Source: a virus. From it: a DNA stretch of 44,840 bases. The stretch's first letter is position 1, and the number at the start of each line of letters is the position of its first letter. The stretch is taken from the UHGV virus genome UHGV-0716684; one strand, given 5' to 3'. This document shows positions 3,317 through 29,718 of the stretch, in pieces. The notes below the pieces were generated by a model. That model was given only the letters and a program-made list of their open reading frames with translations, searched no databases and had not been told where the DNA came from. The position numbers and the translations under genes are program-made.

Positions 3317-3532
3317 ATGCAACCATCTGAACTAGGCATCCGTGTAGAGCAACGCCGTAAAGAACTCGGTATCTCCCAGCGCCGTCTGGCTGTTCTGGCC
3401 GGCGTTTCCCAGGGCGCGATTAACCAGCTTGCACTCGGGGTAACTCAGGACGTACGCCCGGCAACGCTGTTTAAACTGGCGGAAGTGCTGGAAGTAGACG
3501 CCAAGTGGCTGGCGCTAGGTGAAGGGGCGTAA
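3317..3532 (+). CDS. XRE/Cro-family helix-turn-helix transcriptional regulator
   Basis: 71 aa; HTH signature ISQRRLAVLAGVSQGAINQL; AGGAG Shine-Dalgarno; operator-like palindromes in its own upstream region. Confidence 0.8.
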   Translation: MQPSELGIRVEQRRKELGISQRRLAVLAGVSQGAINQLALGVTQDVRPATLFKLAEVLEVDAKWLALGEGA

Positions 3533-6496: not shown

Positions 6497-6533
6497 CCAA
6501 TCTCTGTAATATTTAATCTTTACAAAAATGTTA

Positions 6534-6563
6534 TTGAAAGTTCTTGACACATGTTTGTATAAT
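6534..6563 (+). promoter_or_regulatory. candidate rightward promoter TTGAAA-N18-TATAAT
   Basis: Consensus -10 TATAAT at 6558-6563 with TTGAAA 18 bp upstream. Confidence 0.45.
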
Positions 6564-6762
6564 GGTTTTGGGACTTGTATATATTACGGAGTTGACGAAC
6601 CCTCCCCGAGGGATTCGTCAACCCCTCCCAGACAGCTGAGATGCTTGCCTTGGGGTTTAAGGATAAGTGTATCTAAATCTCATTTAAAGAAGTAACCCGC
6701 TGAAATATCTACTGTTTCTTAATGTGCCGTAGATTCGCAACCGTAAAAATGTAACGATTATT

Positions 6763-6789
6763 GGGCAGGCTTAAGCCTGCCCTTTAGTT
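6763..6789 (+). terminator. terminator-like hairpin (gggcaggc-ttaa-gcctgccc, then tttagtt)
   Basis: Perfect 8 bp GC-rich stem followed by a T-rich tract, inside the noncoding switch region. Confidence 0.4.
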
Positions 6790-6854
6790 ACCAAGTAATA
6801 AGAATAAAGGCACAACCCTCCCCGAAGAATCACAACGGCAACGTAACTATTCTC

Positions 6855-6883
6855 TTGCACACCCCAACATAATAGGTTACTAT
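6855..6883 (+). promoter_or_regulatory. conserved phage promoter TTGCAC-N17-TACTAT with AATAG-N4-CTATT operator-like palindrome
   Basis: TTGCACaccccaacataataggtTACTATtcac; near-identical copies at 20383-20411 and 29690-29718 (minus strand). Confidence 0.5.
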
Positions 6884-6917
6884 TCACTTATCGAAACGAG
6901 ACATAAGGAATTTAGAA

Positions 6918-7136
6918 ATGAACAAAGCGACCGCAAGCGTAGTTTCCGCAATCAAAGAAGTTTACGGCATCGATATCTCAGAGCGCGTAATTATCGGGAA
7001 CAAGCGCAACTTCTTTACGTTCGACACCGACGGAATGGATGAAAATGATTTTGTTAACGTACAACGTTTCGCTAACGGTAAAGGACTTCGTAACGAGCCA
7101 GCGGGTTACAAGAAATTTGCTATCTACTTTAAATAA
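6918..7136 (+). CDS. hypothetical protein
   Basis: 72 aa ORF; AGGAA upstream. Confidence 0.5.
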   Translation: MNKATASVVSAIKEVYGIDISERVIIGNKRNFFTFDTDGMDENDFVNVQRFANGKGLRNEPAGYKKFAIYFK

Positions 7137-10234: not shown

Positions 10235-10543
10235 TTGGATAAATTTACTGAAACAGTGACGGGGTGGCTTCTCGCTGCCGCACTAGCCGGAGGGGTAATC
10301 GGCCTACGGCAACATAAGTCCGTTATTTCTGGCCCTATTGATGGCTTCTGCTTTATCGCTACCGGCTTCACCTGCGCCGTATTTGGTGCGCCTCTCGCGG
10401 CCCAATGGTTTGGTATTACCGGCGAACGCGAGATAGCTGGCCTGGGCTTCATTATCGCTATTCTCTGGATGCCTATCTATTCCCGCCTCTCCGGTATCGT
10501 CGCCGGAGAATACATCGCACGTCGAGGAGACCCGGATGAATGA
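10235..10543 (+). CDS. putative holin (three hydrophobic segments)
   Basis: 102 aa membrane protein immediately upstream of lysozyme; TTG start 6 nt after GGAGGA. Confidence 0.55.
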   Translation: MDKFTETVTGWLLAAALAGGVIGLRQHKSVISGPIDGFCFIATGFTCAVFGAPLAAQWFGITGEREIAGLGFIIAILWMPIYSRLSGIVAGEYIARRGDPDE

Positions 10544-10808
10544 GTTATTCTGGTTCGGCGGTATGCTGGCAATCGGTGGCACATCGCTGTTTAATGTATA
10601 CCACCCCAGTGTTGACGATGGGTTATTTGGTCGGGTGCTCTACATCCTGACCGCTATCGTTTGCGCTGCCGGATGCATCCACCTGTTACAGGGCAGCATG
10701 TCGCCAACGCTGCCTGGGACATTAATCACATTAGTTGCGCTGCGCCAGATTCGTCAGGCGTGGCTGTCATACGGAGGACATAAGCGTGTCTCGAAACATT
10801 TCAGATAA
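10536..10808 (+). CDS. putative holin/antiholin-like membrane protein (two hydrophobic segments)
   Basis: 90 aa; overlaps holin stop and lysozyme start. Confidence 0.5.
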   Translation: MNELFWFGGMLAIGGTSLFNVYHPSVDDGLFGRVLYILTAIVCAAGCIHLLQGSMSPTLPGTLITLVALRQIRQAWLSYGGHKRVSKHFR

Positions 10809-11271
10809 TGGGTTGCATTTTACCGCTGCATTTGAGGGATTCCGCGGAACTGCGTATCGCGCTACACCGAATGAGAAGTACCTTACAATAGGCTACGGAA
10901 GCTATGGCCCTCATGTTAAGGCTGGGCGGACCATCACTCCAGGGCAAGGCCTCCTGTTACTGAATCGTGATATGGCTAAGGCCGTAGCTGCGGTTGACGC
11001 AGCAGCGCACCATTCACTGACGCAGGCGCAGTTTGATGCTGTTTGCGACCTGGTCTATAACGCGGGCGCTGGCGTGATTGCTGCTACTACGGGCACGGGT
11101 AAGGCGCTGCGTTCTGGTGATATCACGACGCTGCGGGCTAAGCTGGCGCTGTTCATCAACCAGAATGGTAAACCGTTACTTGGTCTGCGTCGCCGTACTG
11201 CGGGTCGTCTGGCGTTGTTCGACGGTAAACAGTGGCAGGAGGCGGAGGCTATCGGGAGGGCTGTTAAATGA
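10786..11271 (+). CDS. endolysin, lysozyme (glycoside hydrolase family 24-like)
   Basis: GTG start 8 nt after GGAGG; motifs AAFEGFRGTAY and TIGYG typical of phage lysozymes. Confidence 0.8.
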   Translation: MSRNISDNGLHFTAAFEGFRGTAYRATPNEKYLTIGYGSYGPHVKAGRTITPGQGLLLLNRDMAKAVAAVDAAAHHSLTQAQFDAVCDLVYNAGAGVIAATTGTGKALRSGDITTLRAKLALFINQNGKPLLGLRRRTAGRLALFDGKQWQEAEAIGRAVK

Positions 11272-11397
11272 TGGACGAATACGAAGGCGTTTAGTAAACT
11301 TACATCACGCTGCTTGTGCTTGCATACTAAGCCCTGGTAAACCTGAAGCAGCAGCCCAGGCGGTGGAGACTGCGTAGGGTTCAGGGGCTTATGCCCG

Positions 11398-11428
11398 AAA
11401 CCCGGACCGCGAATCCGGGTTTTATTTT
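11398..11428 (+). terminator. rho-independent terminator
   Basis: cccgga-ccgcgaa-tccggg followed by ttttatttt. Confidence 0.6.
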
Positions 11429-11501
11429 ACCAATTGACACCTAAGACTAATCAGACGATACTTAAATCACCTCCTGTTCCATCCCTCTGCTCTCCAGTTT
11501 T

Positions 11502-11534
11502 ATCCCGGCCCTGACCCAGCCGGGATTTTTTTTA
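11502..11534 (+). terminator. rho-independent terminator (second, tandem)
   Basis: atcccggc...gccgggat followed by tttttttt. Confidence 0.6.
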
Positions 11535-11555
11535 TCTGTTTTCTGTAATGACTAG

Positions 11556-11584
11556 TTGACTATTATCCTCGACCCTATTATATT
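11556..11584 (+). promoter_or_regulatory. sigma70-like promoter TTGACT-N17-TATATT
   Basis: Located after the tandem terminators and before the small-gene block at 11619. Confidence 0.45.
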
Positions 11585-11618
11585 TACTTCATCGACAACG
11601 AGAACGGAGTAGAGAGAA

Positions 11619-16799: not shown

Positions 16800-18212
16800 T
16801 CACTTATTCCATACCAATTTCTCTTGTCCGCTATCCCATATGCGGGATACACCTTCCGCAGCGTACCATTCCGACTGTGTAAGCCCCTCTGGCGCTTTGT
16901 TCCATTTTTGCCGTGATTCTGTTTTAGTCGCATTGTTTACGACGATGCGGAATCCACATCTCACAGAAGCCTTTTTAAACCCCGCTGATAGGTATGATTC
17001 TCCGGTAAATAAATCCCGGTCAGTGTAGGTAAAACCGTCGGTGATGCTATAACGGCGCACGGCATAGGCCCATAGCTTCGACAGCCCGCCTACCACCGAA
17101 CACGACGTAGCGTACCGCACAAGCTCCCATTCACCTTTTCTACACGTCAGCGTCATTACCGCAACAATCTTTTCTTCATAAACGAGGCTGATATACCTCG
17201 TCGAGTTACGGAATCCTTGAATGTGGTTCTCCTCCAGGAAACGCTCTGCACATATTTTGTTAATCTCTTTTACATGGCATTTGCGGGCGAAAACTCGCAA
17301 AGAAGAGACGCCGACGGAATGGCCGATTATTTTCTTTATTATTTCTTTTTTATGCAGCCATAGCTCATCCCTTATTGACAGGAGCCGGAACCCTCTTTCC
17401 TCAACGGCGACTCTTTTCTCCATGTGATACTTTCTCCCCTTCCCGGCAGCTTCACTGTGCCAGTACAGGCCGTTTATTTCTATCGCCAGATTATGTTGCG
17501 GTATTAAAATATCTATCTCTCTTGGGTGGATAAGACTTCTATCATTCCGATGATATTCCACCCCCATGCTATCGAGAAATTCACAGACTTCATCCTCCAC
17601 TTTACTACGCCCGAACGACGCGCACCGCGGGCACCCTCTACCCTGAAAAATGTTACCAAGCGTAGAGGCCCATTCATGGCCTTTTTGACACCTCAGTGTC
17701 GATGGCGCACGGCAGATATCCCCTGAATAAGACACCAGTTCAAAACCAGTGCCGCGTAACCTTTCCTCTATTTCTCCGATCTCGAGCCTTTTTCTGTTAG
17801 TGCTGCAATTCGGGCAATGACTTTTACCCCTTAAAATGTCGCTGCCGGTAGCGGACCAGACGAACCCGCATTTACATCTGAACGTTGATTTCCCACTTAC
17901 AGCACCTGCGTAATTAAGGCATTCAACCCCATTAGGCCACTCTGTTACTTTCGCCCGTTTTTCCGCAGCGTAGCATTGGGGGCAACCATGACCGTTTAGG
18001 ACGGTATTGGCCTTTGTCTCCCACACATGGCCACTACGGCAGCGGAATTTAGACTTAAGTTTAGAGTGGCCTGCATACTCAATTACTACTATACCCCGTG
18101 ACGCCAGTCTCAGGTTTACATCTTCTTCAGTTAAACGTCTGGACCCCATTAAAATACCCTCCGCTTCTTCTAGTATAAAGATTGTGTATATACATGTACC
18201 ACAGCAAGACAT
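16800..18212 (-). CDS. putative multi-domain homing-type endonuclease (zinc-ribbon repeats plus PD-(D/E)XK Vsr/DUF559-like nuclease motif)
   Basis: Repeated C..GH.W...G.GCP.C units; motif EIDILIPQHNLAIEINGLYWHSE; opposite strand inside the packaging/head module. Confidence 0.55.
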   Translation of the reverse strand: MSCCGTCIYTIFILEEAEGILMGSRRLTEEDVNLRLASRGIVVIEYAGHSKLKSKFRCRSGHVWETKANTVLNGHGCPQCYAAEKRAKVTEWPNGVECLNYAGAVSGKSTFRCKCGFVWSATGSDILRGKSHCPNCSTNRKRLEIGEIEERLRGTGFELVSYSGDICRAPSTLRCQKGHEWASTLGNIFQGRGCPRCASFGRSKVEDEVCEFLDSMGVEYHRNDRSLIHPREIDILIPQHNLAIEINGLYWHSEAAGKGRKYHMEKRVAVEERGFRLLSIRDELWLHKKEIIKKIIGHSVGVSSLRVFARKCHVKEINKICAERFLEENHIQGFRNSTRYISLVYEEKIVAVMTLTCRKGEWELVRYATSCSVVGGLSKLWAYAVRRYSITDGFTYTDRDLFTGESYLSAGFKKASVRCGFRIVVNNATKTESRQKWNKAPEGLTQSEWYAAEGVSRIWDSGQEKLVWNK

Positions 18213-19790: not shown

Positions 19791-19793
19791 TAT

Positions 19794-19820
19794 AAGGCCC
19801 CGAAAGGGGCCTTAATTTTA
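19794..19820. terminator. conserved terminator hairpin aaggccccgaaaggggcctt
   Basis: Perfect 8 bp stem, GAAA loop, T-rich flank; same hairpin at 27155 and 39396. Confidence 0.6.
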
Positions 19821-20357
19821 ATAAGCTAACCAAGAACCTCTTTCTGTGAACATCAATTTATTTCCTTTTAAGAGATTCAGAACCGCAGGGATAACTTGTA
19901 TGTTTTCTGCGACGTGCAGCCCTGAGACAGTTTTAGCCCGCAACGGCAGCATGTGGTCGATATGCCATAAGAAACCTGTTTCACCCGCTCGCAGTTGACA
20001 TAGCTCCTGCGCTTCTTCGAATACTAATAGGTCAAATTCATCATTCCTGATGTTTATACTCCTGGCTCTTTTTGCCGTTTTATACTTCAACCTTTGGGCT
20101 TTCCTGGCGGTTTTGTTTTTCTTACGGTACTCCGCATCAATTTCGGCTAATCGGTCTTTATTTTCTTGCCTCCATTTTGCGTTTTTAGCCGCCCAAGAAA
20201 CAGCGTTTCGTTCTCGGTACGATTTTTGTATCTCTTTAGTGCACTCATAGCACCCGGTGCGAACATGCCTTTTCGCAACATGCCCGCGTTTACACGGTTT
20301 GCCAGTGAAGTAATAATCATCCCCCGCGGCTATGGCTTCTGAACGCTTAGTGAGCAT
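19818..20357 (-). CDS. HNH-type endonuclease
   Basis: 179 aa; CKRGH..C.EC zinc-binding N-terminus and WHIDHMLPL...N HNH-like core. Confidence 0.6.
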   Translation of the reverse strand: MLTKRSEAIAAGDDYYFTGKPCKRGHVAKRHVRTGCYECTKEIQKSYRERNAVSWAAKNAKWRQENKDRLAEIDAEYRKKNKTARKAQRLKYKTAKRARSINIRNDEFDLLVFEEAQELCQLRAGETGFLWHIDHMLPLRAKTVSGLHVAENIQVIPAVLNLLKGNKLMFTERGSWLAY

Positions 20358-20382
20358 AAAACCCCCTGTTTAAGTTAACCGA

Positions 20383-20411
20383 ATAGTACCCTATTATATT
20401 GGTGTGTGCAA
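20383..20411 (-). promoter_or_regulatory. promoter TTGCAC-N17-TACTAT with GAATAG-N4-CTATT palindrome
   Basis: Reverse complement TTGCACacaccaatataatagggTACTATtc; upstream of the HNH gene. Confidence 0.5.
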
Positions 20412-20686
20412 ACTATTTGTTTACATATTCCAGTTATTCCACTCAATTGTAAATGTTGGAATAAACTATTCGAATAGTTGACTTTTCACTAAAAATATGA
20501 TAAGCTCCACCTGAGCTTGTGAAGTATGAACAAGCGACCGCGGCGCGGGCAGGTAACGGAGCCGGATGTTAAGTCCGAGTGTAGTTACGCTGACGCGTTC
20601 GGAAGGGCCGTACTCTATTGCTTGTGTAAAAAGTAACTGGTTTACTGAGATTACGCCGTTTCTATGTTTAAATGATAAGGACTAGC

Positions 20687-20712
20687 GCCCCGCTTTAAGG
20701 CGGGGCTTTACT
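20687..20712 (+). terminator. terminator-like hairpin (gccccgc-tttaag-gcggggc, then tttacttat)
   Basis: GC stem followed by T-rich tract, located in the leader just upstream of the i-spanin RBS. Confidence 0.45.
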
Positions 20713-20730
20713 TATCGAGAAAGGAGAAAC

Positions 20731-21117
20731 ATGAATCTTAAAGCAACTGTCGTAGCGGGGGCATGTTTCATCGTCCTGTTATACGCACACGGCTACTTTC
20801 AATACCGCAGCGGTTGGGACGAAGGCCGGGCGAATCTCGTTTCGCAGCAACAGCAGGAAGCACAGGCTGAGTTAGCGAAGAAAACACAACGGCAGCAGCA
20901 GGATGAGTCGAAGGCCGCAGCCGCTGATAACGAAGGCAAGACGAAATCAGAGGTAATTACACGTGAAGTCGTTAAGTACATTAAAACGCCCGGTCGCAGC
21001 GTGTGCACTTTCGATGATGCTCGCGTCCTGCTCAAGTCCCGCGCCGTCGCAAACGCCAATTCCATCCCCGGATACGACAATGATGCAGCCGCCGTGCAAA
21101 CTGGCTCCGCCAAGTAA
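20731..21117 (+). CDS. i-spanin (Rz-like)
   Basis: 128 aa; N-terminal transmembrane segment, Q/E/K-rich coiled-coil-like middle; AAGGAGAAAC RBS. Confidence 0.6.
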   Translation: MNLKATVVAGACFIVLLYAHGYFQYRSGWDEGRANLVSQQQQEAQAELAKKTQRQQQDESKAAAADNEGKTKSEVITREVVKYIKTPGRSVCTFDDARVLLKSRAVANANSIPGYDNDAAAVQTGSAK

Positions 21118-21308: not shown

Positions 21309-22010
21309 ATGAATCGTTTTTTACGTTATCCGTTCCAGGAAGAAGCTGGGGCAGAAGATAAAGCTGGTGGCGGTGACGCGCCAAAAATGTTCACCGCTGA
21401 AGAAGTTCAGGCGCTGATTGAGAAAGAAGTAGCCGGGCTTAAGGCCAATCAGGAAGCGTTGCTGGCGGAGAAGAAAGAAGCCGCTCGTAAAGCAAAAGAG
21501 GCCGAAGAAGAACGGCAGCGTGCCCACCAGGAGGCGTTAAAAGCCGCTGGTAAGATGGACGAGTTCGAAAAGACGATTCGTAGCCAGTATGACCCGGTGT
21601 TAGCTGAGAAAGATGGTCGCATCTCCAAAATGGCAGAGCGCATCCTCGGCAGCGAACGTAAAGCGGTGTTAGGCTCTTTCGCGGGCGACTTTATCACCCC
21701 TGAAGCAGTAGACATTCTTGCACCGTTCGTTAAGACTGAGTTCGAAGGCGATGATGTGGTTACTAAGTTTGTCGGCGCAGATGGCAATGTAATCACAACT
21801 GACCCGGAACAGTTCCGTAAATATTTGCGTGAACACAAAGCGTTTTCGCATTTGATTAAAGCAAATGCAGCTTCCGGCGGCGGGGCTTCCGGTGGCAAAG
21901 GCGGCGGGGCCGCACCAGCGTTTAAAGACATGAGTGAAGCAGAGCGTTTAGCCCTGTATAAATCGAACCCTGCCGAATTTGAACGGCAACTTAAAGCCCT
22001 GAGGAAATAA
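21309..22010 (+). CDS. putative capsid scaffolding protein
   Basis: Charged, helical-looking E/K/A-rich protein immediately upstream of major capsid gene; ORF track starts at 21255 (TTG), ATG at 21309 preferred. Confidence 0.55.
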   Translation: MNRFLRYPFQEEAGAEDKAGGGDAPKMFTAEEVQALIEKEVAGLKANQEALLAEKKEAARKAKEAEEERQRAHQEALKAAGKMDEFEKTIRSQYDPVLAEKDGRISKMAERILGSERKAVLGSFAGDFITPEAVDILAPFVKTEFEGDDVVTKFVGADGNVITTDPEQFRKYLREHKAFSHLIKANAASGGGASGGKGGGAAPAFKDMSEAERLALYKSNPAEFERQLKALRK

Positions 22011-22012
22011 TA

Positions 22013-23062
22013 ATGGCAATTACTACTATCGGCGATATCGTAACTGGCAACATCCCGGTCCTGGCGTCTTATATGACCGAGGACCCGGTAGAAAAAACCG
22101 CGTTCTTCCAGTCTGGTATTCTGACCCCGACCCCATACGCTGCCGAGATTGCCCGCGGCCCGTCCAACATCGCTAATATTCCTTTCTGGAAAGCGATTGA
22201 TACCTCTATCGAGCCAAACTACTCGAACGACGTATACCAGGATATCGCTACCCCGCGTAACGTGCGGACCGGTGAGATGATGGCGCGCGTTGCATACCTG
22301 AACGAAGGTTTCGGCCAGGCGGACCTGACTGTCGAACTGACCAGCCAGAACCCGCTGCAATCAGTAGCTTCTCGCCTGGATAACTTCTGGCAGCGCCAGG
22401 CACAACGCCGTCTGATTGCCACCGCGCTCGGTCTGTACAATGACAACGTGGCCGCTACCGACGCATACCACGAGCAGAACGACATGGTGATCGACGTGTC
22501 CGCTACTAAAGGCTTCGACGCGGGCGCGTTCATCGACGCTACCCAGACTATGGGTGATGCGCTGATGGGCAACGGCGGTGAAGTGCTGGGCGCTATCGCG
22601 ATGCACAGCTTCGTTTATGCGCAGGCCCGTAAGCAGCAGCTTATTGACTTCATCAAAAACGCTGACAACGATACCCTGTTCGCCACCTACCAGGGCTACC
22701 GCGTGATTGTTGATGACAGCATGACGGTAGTTGGTACAGGCCCGAGCCGTAAGTTCATCTCCATCATCTTCGGCAACGGCGCTATCGGTTACGGCGAAGG
22801 TAACCCGAAAAATCCGCTGGCATATGAGCGCGAAGAGTCCCGCGGCAATGGTGGCGGTGTCGAAACCTTGTGGACCCGTAAGACCTGGTTACTGCACCCA
22901 CTGGGCTACAGCTTCACCAGCGCAGTAATCACTGGCAACGGCACCGAGACTACCCCGCGCTCCGCTTCCTGGCAGGACCTGGCGAACGCCTCCAACTGGA
23001 ACCGTGTGGTTGAACGTAAGCATGTGCCTATTGCCTTCCTGGTAACTGGTGTAGGTGCTTAA
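22013..23062 (+). CDS. major capsid protein
   Basis: 349 aa ORF after scaffold gene, followed by a strong terminator; size and position typical. Confidence 0.8.
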   Translation: MAITTIGDIVTGNIPVLASYMTEDPVEKTAFFQSGILTPTPYAAEIARGPSNIANIPFWKAIDTSIEPNYSNDVYQDIATPRNVRTGEMMARVAYLNEGFGQADLTVELTSQNPLQSVASRLDNFWQRQAQRRLIATALGLYNDNVAATDAYHEQNDMVIDVSATKGFDAGAFIDATQTMGDALMGNGGEVLGAIAMHSFVYAQARKQQLIDFIKNADNDTLFATYQGYRVIVDDSMTVVGTGPSRKFISIIFGNGAIGYGEGNPKNPLAYEREESRGNGGGVETLWTRKTWLLHPLGYSFTSAVITGNGTETTPRSASWQDLANASNWNRVVERKHVPIAFLVTGVGA

Positions 23063-23078
23063 GGTTAAGCTATAATCG

Positions 23079-23104
23079 AGAGGGACTTCGGTCCCTCTTT
23101 TCAT
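23079..23104 (+). terminator. rho-independent terminator
   Basis: agagggac-ttcg-gtccctct followed by tttcattt. Confidence 0.6.
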
Positions 23105-29649: not shown

Positions 29650-29689
29650 TTTAATTCCTTATTTAAGTTAATAACGTTGGTGTAAGTGA

Positions 29690-29718
29690 ATAGTACCCTA
29701 TTATATTGGGGTGTGCAA
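29690..29718 (-). promoter_or_regulatory. promoter TTGCAC-N17-TACTAT with GAATAG-N4-CTATT palindrome
   Basis: Reverse complement TTGCACaccccaatataatagggTACTATtcac; essentially identical to 6855-6883. Confidence 0.5.

Follow-up and report, generated by a model that had tools for sequence, protein, structure and literature searches.

The window analysed here (UHGV-0716684, 44,840 nucleotides) is a complete Kagunavirus genome of the subfamily Guernseyvirinae, and its gene order is co-linear with that of annotated E. coli phages, e.g. Bas70 and XY1. The region under study, 373 nt long, separates a minus-strand gene (19818-20357) from the ATG of the i-spanin gene (20731-21117, plus strand), which was identified from the annotation of near-identical phages and is the first gene behind the leader. 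The scaffold gene (21309-22010) lies 3' of the i-spanin and o-spanin genes and is followed by the major capsid gene (22013-23062), both on the plus strand. The terminator scan detected strong gene-end terminators at 19793-19814 and, after the capsid gene, at 23078-23099. Because these two terminators bracket the unit, the genes from spanin to capsid need a promoter of their own. No conserved promoter for the capsid genes was identified between the two terminators other than that at 20478-20506, which heads the spanin, scaffold and capsid genes together with a leader carrying a 36-codon ORF. The holin and endolysin genes are located elsewhere (10235-11271), and a tRNA scan found no tRNA in the window.

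PHROGs assigned a small protein to endonuclease VII, and homologues of the minus-strand gene at 19818-20357 carry the same annotation in RefSeq; the gene gave no Pfam match. It is an insertion at the exact left edge of the conserved block described below and is polymorphic among relatives; in Jerseyvirus Ent3, which is without the insertion, the terminator of the decoration gene runs straight into the block. The head genes of the plus strand are interrupted twice by minus-strand genes, namely by this one and by the gene at 16800-18212, whose 470-aa product contains treble-clef zinc fingers and has a weak, sub-threshold match to Vsr/restriction-endonuclease-like proteins. Many relatives lack the gene for the 179-aa endonuclease VII/HNH-like product, which has the appearance of a mobile insertion.

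Conservation of the non-coding block

Spanin-upstream DNA from 47 viral contigs and several GenBank phages was aligned. The alignment revealed a conserved non-coding block that starts at 20425 and ends at the spanin ATG (20425-20730). It was present in every Kagunavirus and Jerseyvirus relative examined, with or without the upstream endonuclease insertion, and the whole block was found in hundreds of phage records. Two diverged main alleles, K and J, were distinguished. Allele K is carried by the Kagunaviruses and some Jerseyviruses, is 90-100% identical among its carriers and is more conserved than the flanking genes (approximately 80-85% identical). Allele J, carried by the Ent3- and wksl3-type Jerseyviruses, is approximately 45-65% identical to K and less conserved than its own flanks, yet the fold of its leader is still kept. 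The variants L315 and L028 differ mostly within one hairpin. Part of the very high identity of K (97-100%) could be due to recent recombination or to co-conversion by the adjacent endonuclease gene, and not to selection.

The Cornellviruses and Pantoea phage AH01 have a different, highly structured leader of approximately 300 nt before the spanin gene, and a Klebsiella relative has yet another; the covariance models of the hairpins P1 and P2 (model R1) and of P4 (model R2) described below gave no match in the Cornellvirus, Pantoea or Klebsiella relatives. The 300-nt leader of Cornellvirus Shemara (L177), vB_CECAV_044 (L178) and Pantoea phage AH01 (L180) contains many conserved hairpins, and the promoter box of these phages, TTGACAC-N8-TGTATAATG, is like positions 6544-6565 of the window and unlike the promoter studied here. 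A 14-mer scan of viral contigs returned mostly unrelated contigs and no new alleles, and a 16-base pattern scan of metagenomes returned mostly chance matches, leaving after filtering only near-identical K-type copies and again no new alleles. The leader had no match in E. coli genomes. With Rfam, nothing reached the gathering score anywhere in the window, and the relaxed search gave chance-level matches only (E 1-10) in 20300-20800 and in the J allele; no paper describing the leader was found in the literature.

In three Jerseyvirus relatives, ARAGORN called a minus-strand tRNA-Ser (tga) just left of the block (L050, 1432-1510; L174, 1132-1210; L175, 981-1059). This tRNA is annotated in the L174 and L175 records and runs into the end of the decoration gene in those records in which that gene is annotated. 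The L050 locus, the one tested, gave no match to the Rfam tRNA model even at E <= 1, and the call in the Jerseyvirus records is probably false.

Promoter and upstream repeats

A sigma-70 promoter is predicted on the plus strand at 20478-20506, with the -35 element TTGACT (20478-20483), a 17-nt spacer and an extended -10 element composed of TG (20498-20499) and TAAGCT (20501-20506); transcription is predicted to start near 20513. These elements had been named in the original prediction, all of whose sequence features were found at their given positions, and the alignment confirmed that the promoter elements are kept in relatives. The -10 hexamer fits the consensus at only 3 of 6 positions, which is why the promoter was missing from the list of the consensus scan, and its credibility therefore rests on conservation and not on the consensus score. 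Over 47 distinct promoter variants, the TG, TA-GCT, most of the -35, the TATTC repeats and a GTAAA were nearly or fully invariant. The -35 element is TTGACT in K and either TAGACT or TTGACT in J.

Upstream of the promoter, the direct repeat TATTCC-AGT-TATTCC (20426-20440; approximately 73-87 bp upstream of the predicted start) is a candidate regulator site. Its two hexamers did not vary among the 47 distinct promoter variants from K and J, and the genome contains no further exact copy; a single match with two mismatches is at chance level. Next comes the inverted repeat GAATA-AAC-TATTC (20459-20471; centre at approximately -48), which in the K/J alignment takes the form GAATA-CTT-TATTC in J. 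The everted half-sites to which attention had been drawn earlier are indeed present at 20466-20477 as the palindrome CTATTCGAATAG, but this occurs in the K allele only (J has TTATTCAAAAAG), and as a 12-mer it is at chance level (2 matches at up to two mismatches versus 1.67 expected). The conserved DNA repeats are the neighbouring TATTCC-AGT-TATTCC and GAATA-N3-TATTC, not the everted palindrome. The half-site of CTATTCGAATAG is a member of the genome-wide motif GAATAGTNNNCTATT (21 matches versus 2.8 expected); as GAATAGT/ACTATTC, it belongs to a promoter/operator family, GAATAGT-N3-CTATT, most sites of which lie between -35 and -10. At 20472-20486, this operator motif is found with one mismatch, overlapping the -35 element. 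The proposed hairpin AAGCTC/GAGCTT was found at 20502-20518, but its loop is 5 nt (CACCT) and not 4 nt, and it is specific to K.

A further copy of the promoter/operator family, GAATAGTACCCTATTATATT...GTGTGCAA (20376-20411, plus strand), lies outside the conserved block and has a poor -35 element. This copy (repeat D9) is 92% identical to 29683-29718, matches the motif perfectly at 20381-20395, and occurs only in phages with an insertion at this place, here the minus-strand endonuclease gene. Operator-bearing promoters with the palindrome GAATAGT-N3-CTATT were found at 133, 3229, 3273, 6871, 8480, 20381, 29688 and 41682. Two of these operators adjoin a gene (3317-3532) for a 71-aa Cro/CI-type HTH protein, which would be a natural candidate regulator. 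The family probably corresponds to the seven PHIRE promoters described in phage Golestan (PMC7203180).

Structure of the leader RNA

The leader extends over approximately 218 nt from the predicted start (near 20513) to the spanin ATG and is non-coding. The 36-codon ORF (20526-20636, plus strand), which overlaps P1 and P2 and is listed as a 36-aa "hypothetical protein" in the annotation of some relatives, had been described as weak, and the alignment bore this out: in J an 11-nt deletion takes its ATG and the following 8 nt, in L028 the ATG is lost by substitution, and in the K phages L007, L010, L011 and L021 the frame is broken by 1-nt indels. Judged from these sequences, the ORF does not represent a gene. 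A 39-aa ORF at 20566 was rejected because its ATG is missing from the major K allele, and a mini-ORF within P4 (AUGUUUAAAUGA) because its start codon is missing in L042, L173, L337 and L199. No ORF conserved among relatives was found in the leader.

The 5'-terminal hairpin P1 (20515-20535, plus strand) is formed by GCUUGU and ACAAGC (-7.2 kcal/mol, z -3.3). Its counterpart in J, ACGCU-UUC-AGCGU, is located directly at the predicted 5' end, and in both alleles the hairpin begins within 3 nt of that end. Helix 1 of P1 was 99% paired, with both sides changed in 4 of its 6 pairs, and the stem reaches 8 bp in L028. The second hairpin, P2 (20538-20602, plus strand), is an irregular structure of 65 nt indicated by its folding energy and by the finding of J with a model built from K. 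It comprises the helices CCG/CGG, GGCGCG/CGCGUU, CAG/CUG, GUAAC/GUUAC and the apical CGGAU/GUCCG. The plus strand of P2 folds with -30.9 kcal/mol (z -3.0) and the minus strand with -20.0 kcal/mol (z -1.1). Because of this much weaker minus-strand fold and the many G-U pairs, the structure was assigned to the plus-strand RNA and not to DNA or an antisense RNA.

The covariance model of P1 and P2 made from K alone recovered all J alleles at full length (E 8e-6 to 3e-4). Standard pairs filled 95.9% of the pair cells, compared with 28-40% in slid controls, and the covariation score was reached by none of 500 shuffles. Both sides were changed in 14 of the 29 pairs (10 pairs in P2), and in 21 pairs when P4 is included, although these counts are inflated since the alignments were fitted to the models, and most of the covariation goes back to a small number of splits between lineages (K, J, L315 and L028). 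Double changes were also found within alleles (C-G to U-A in L318, G-C to A-U in L173 and L340, and U-A to G-C in L028), and in the apical stem in L315 and L028; pairs broken by single changes occur in L007, L278, L321 and L016. On the strength of this covariation, the leader is shown to be a structured RNA of the plus strand. In Salmonella phage SLMP1 (L176), P2 has lost precisely its upper part through a natural deletion of 41 nt, and a short basal hairpin remains; judging from the pattern of BLAST coverage, the deletion may be shared by a few other Salmonella phages. A long-range pairing of 20522-20527 with 20609-20614, present in the minimum free energy fold, was rejected as it is found only in K and is absent in J.

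The central leader (20603-20657) contains AAGGGCC, CUAUUGCUU and AGAUU.CGCC in both K and J, and is the most conserved stretch in the K-type phages (97-100% versus approximately 80-85% for the flanking genes). A small hairpin within it, P3 (AGUAA/UUACU, 20632-20646), is found in K only.

The composite hairpin P4 (20658-20730, plus strand; 73 nt, -28.9 kcal/mol, z -4.0) ends one base ahead of the spanin AUG. Its outer helix, P4a, pairs GUUUCU (20658-20663) with AGAAAC (20725-20730) in the spacer between the Shine-Dalgarno sequence and the AUG; the spanin Shine-Dalgarno sequence AAGGAG (20721-20726) lies partly within this helix and partly beside it. P4b pairs GAUAAG (20674-20679) with CUUAUC (20711-20716), and a 3-bp helix pairs UAG (20683-20685) with UUA (20708-20710); all three helices show compensatory changes. 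The apex, P4c, is an 8-bp stem with 7 GC pairs and a loop of 4 nt (20687-20694 with 20699-20706; -17.2 kcal/mol). The P4 model made from K alone likewise recovered all J alleles at full length, at approximately E 1e-6. Paired cells amounted to 98.3% compared with 38-54% after sliding, and both sides were changed in 7 of 23 pairs. In L317, a 3-nt deletion with adjacent substitutions produces a perfect 18-bp stem in place of the interrupted one.

The original prediction had described the locus as a promoter-leader-terminator unit. A single unit is indeed made up by the promoter, the long non-coding leader and the strong hairpin that immediately precedes the ribosome-binding site of the i-spanin gene, but the hairpin is not a simple terminator. 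It corresponds to GCCCCGCT-TTAA-GGCGGGGC at 20687-20706, followed by TTTACTTATC, and was the top terminator-like site in 18-24 kb (15 sites there versus 6.2 expected); together with the tail UUUACUUAUC (20687-20716), P4c is predicted to work as an intrinsic terminator of moderate or leaky strength, and this in the K allele alone. It resembles rho-independent terminators in its GC-rich 8-bp stem and its tetraloop followed by UUUA. However, the K tail UUUACUUAUC has just 3 consecutive U, a conserved U-run 3' of the stem was not found, and the tail nucleotides TTTA and CTTATC are the 3' strand of the conserved lower stems of P4, base-paired through compensatory changes with TAG and GATAAG in K and J. 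In J, an equally strong stem is followed by UUAGCGUAUA (J tail, UUAGCGUAU), and the U-run is lost; it is also absent from the Cornellvirus and Pantoea-phage leaders, where a long hairpin before the Shine-Dalgarno sequence is still present. The terminators at the gene ends of this genome (AAGGCCCC-GAAA-GGGGCCUU with a U-run) are of a different and stronger type than P4c. Since the tail is paired in helices and neither J nor the Cornellvirus-type leaders have the U-run, termination is unlikely to be the conserved function, and at P4c it would be at most leaky and confined to the K allele. What the leaders have in common is a long hairpin abutting the ribosome-binding site.

The energy for opening the spanin start region was 9.5 kcal/mol, ranking approximately 26th of 73 genes. 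Strong translational masking as the main role of P4 was rejected, as the spanin start region is no outlier, and from this unremarkable opening energy any masking by P4 would be mild at most.

Possible functions of the unit

The reading that we prefer, at a probability of about 45%, is that the spanins, the scaffold and the major capsid protein have here a late promoter of their own, together with a structured 5' UTR that acts in cis. Host RNA polymerase would start at the conserved extended -10 sigma-70 promoter, near 20513, and the array of TATTC half-sites upstream would probably be bound by a phage-encoded DNA-binding regulator; the late promoter is probably regulated. The hairpins of the leader would act after initiation, where they would most likely protect the 5' end of the mRNA and shield the long untranslated leader, and may also be processing or protein-binding sites. 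Owing to mild masking of the spanin ribosome-binding site by P4, spanins would be made more slowly than the scaffold and capsid proteins encoded on this mRNA. Some termination may occur in K at the GC-rich apex of P4 and its UUUA, as a side property and not a conserved function. Hairpins that stabilise mRNA and leaders that are processed by RNase III are known from the ompA 5' UTR, the T7 R-sites and the lambda N leader. Like these, the leader studied here carries a hairpin at its very 5' terminus and long irregular hairpins before highly expressed genes, one adjoining the ribosome-binding site. It is an element of a familiar kind and had no match in Rfam at the gathering score. A published RNA-seq study of a Kagunavirus reports its values at the gene level (PMC12645636).

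The original prediction had further proposed that late-gene expression depends on read-through by antitermination or attenuation. Most polymerase starting at 20513 would then stop at P4c, yielding an RNA of approximately 200 nt, and the late genes would need termination-resistant polymerase, produced either by a phage protein at the promoter, in the style of lambda Q, or by the nascent P1-P2 RNA, in the style of HK022 put. We consider this possible but unlikely, and not the best-supported reading, since the U-run is not conserved and no protein of the Q or N families was detected among 45 small proteins. The layout parallels the lambda late region, in which PR', 6S RNA and tR' are followed by lysis and head genes: common to both are the -35 element TTGACT, a non-coding leader of approximately 200 nt, a hairpin, and then Rz/Rz1-type and head genes. 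A -10-like hexamer also recurs just downstream of the -10 element, as TAAGCT..TGAGCT in K and TACGCT..TACGCT in J. The downstream copy (TGAGCT at 20512-20517 in K, the second TACGCT in J) is a possible counterpart of the -10-like pause element in the initially transcribed region that is known from lambda Q/qut antitermination, but it overlaps both the P1 stem and the predicted start. The hairpin of K had a terminator-like score, and a second promoter-leader-hairpin unit is present at 6534-6790. Unlike lambda, the phage has no Q-family gene that could be found, the U-run of its hairpin is short, base-paired and not conserved, its leader contains long conserved covarying hairpins, and its holin and endolysin are encoded elsewhere. 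A Pfam scan of the 45 small proteins gave no known antiterminator family among the matches listed (E <= 0.0067; three further families scored worse), nor was an antiterminator found among the PHROG families listed (25 of 69) or in the annotation of the close relative Bas70. By eye, no alternative pairing against the 5' arm of the P4c terminator was common to both alleles, and only a weak K-specific one was seen. Put RNA binds the zinc-binding domain of the RNA polymerase beta' subunit and suppresses termination in cis. It is a double stem-loop of approximately 65-73 nt, situated near the transcript start or further downstream (PMC9378689). P1 and P2 are also adjacent stem-loops, beginning at about +3 as in putL (PMC9378689), and like HK022 put they precede a terminator-like hairpin in a phage in which no dedicated antiterminator protein was identified (PMC9378689, PMC8632103). 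However, they span approximately 88 nt (about +3 to +90) instead of approximately 70 nt and consist of one short and one very long hairpin, model R1 found nothing in the HK022 genome at E <= 10, so that a similarity to putL/putR was not seen, and the viable phage SLMP1 dispenses with the upper half of P2. That P1-P2 is a novel type of protein-independent put-like RNA riding with the E. coli or Salmonella RNA polymerase through P4c and the partial terminators of the structural block of approximately 19 kb is rated as very improbable; if true, it would constitute an RNA-only late switch in strictly virulent siphoviruses.

The remaining explanations place the function in RNA processing, in a separate RNA or in the DNA. 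P2, P4 or both could be processing sites for RNase III or another nuclease, as at the T7 R-sites or in the lambda N leader; cutting there would separate the leader from the capsid mRNA, on which protective hairpins would remain. Each forms an irregular hairpin of approximately 24-27 bp with internal loops, and the two precede the late genes with the highest expression. This reading overlaps with the structured 5' UTR and does not exclude it; we rate it as decidedly unlikely. A stand-alone small RNA gene of approximately 200 nt, running from the promoter to P4c and acting in trans on host or phage targets, would account for the promoter, the structured RNA, the hairpin and the extreme conservation of the central segment, but its terminator tail would be weak in K and poor in J, the structure runs through the spacer between the spanin Shine-Dalgarno sequence and AUG and is thereby tied to the downstream gene, the capsid genes would be left with no other conserved promoter identified between the two terminators, and no match was found in E. 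coli genomes; we hold it to be very unlikely. Lastly, the block could be mainly a DNA-level element, such as a replication or packaging site, an endonuclease target or a recombination linker, kept by gene conversion. The iteron-like repeats beside an AT-rich stretch, the insertion of a polymorphic endonuclease gene exactly at the left edge, and an identity of K-type blocks above that of the flanking genes are consistent with such an element, but the G-U pairs and the strand asymmetry favour RNA, compensatory changes preserve the helices even where the alleles have diverged strongly, and J keeps the fold while being less conserved than its flanks. Its probability is rated as slighter still.

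Phage collections for therapy and food safety often contain Kagunaviruses and Jerseyviruses, and the region provides a precisely delimited candidate for the control of the timing and balance of their capsid-gene expression, namely a single-copy promoter with conserved repeats and an RNA leader supported by covariation. The leader would be a suitable addition to the RNA family databases.

Other promoter-hairpin arrangements were observed in the window. At 6534-6920, a leader of approximately 200 nt and a composite hairpin (6751-6790; GUAAC..GGGCAGGC-UUAA-GCCUGCCC-UUUA-GUUAC) come after a strong promoter on the plus strand (TTGAAA-18-TATAAT, matching at 11 of 12 positions), and the plus-strand early genes start at 6918. 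This unit faces a minus-strand promoter at 6890-6854, and the two transcripts would overlap by approximately 300 nt; the stretch 6700-6857 is 83-95% conserved in both genera. Model R2 matched 6722-6809 (E 5e-5), but homology of the studied unit with 6530-6930 was rejected, as BLAST gave E > 1 and the match reflects only a similar hairpin design. At 11381-11590, a terminator is followed by a promoter (TTGACA-17-GATACT, 11434-11462), approximately 45 nt, a strong terminator with 8 T (11502-11532) and another promoter (11556-11584). This is a possible short RNA gene, located just upstream of the small plus-strand genes (from 11619) that precede the terminase genes.
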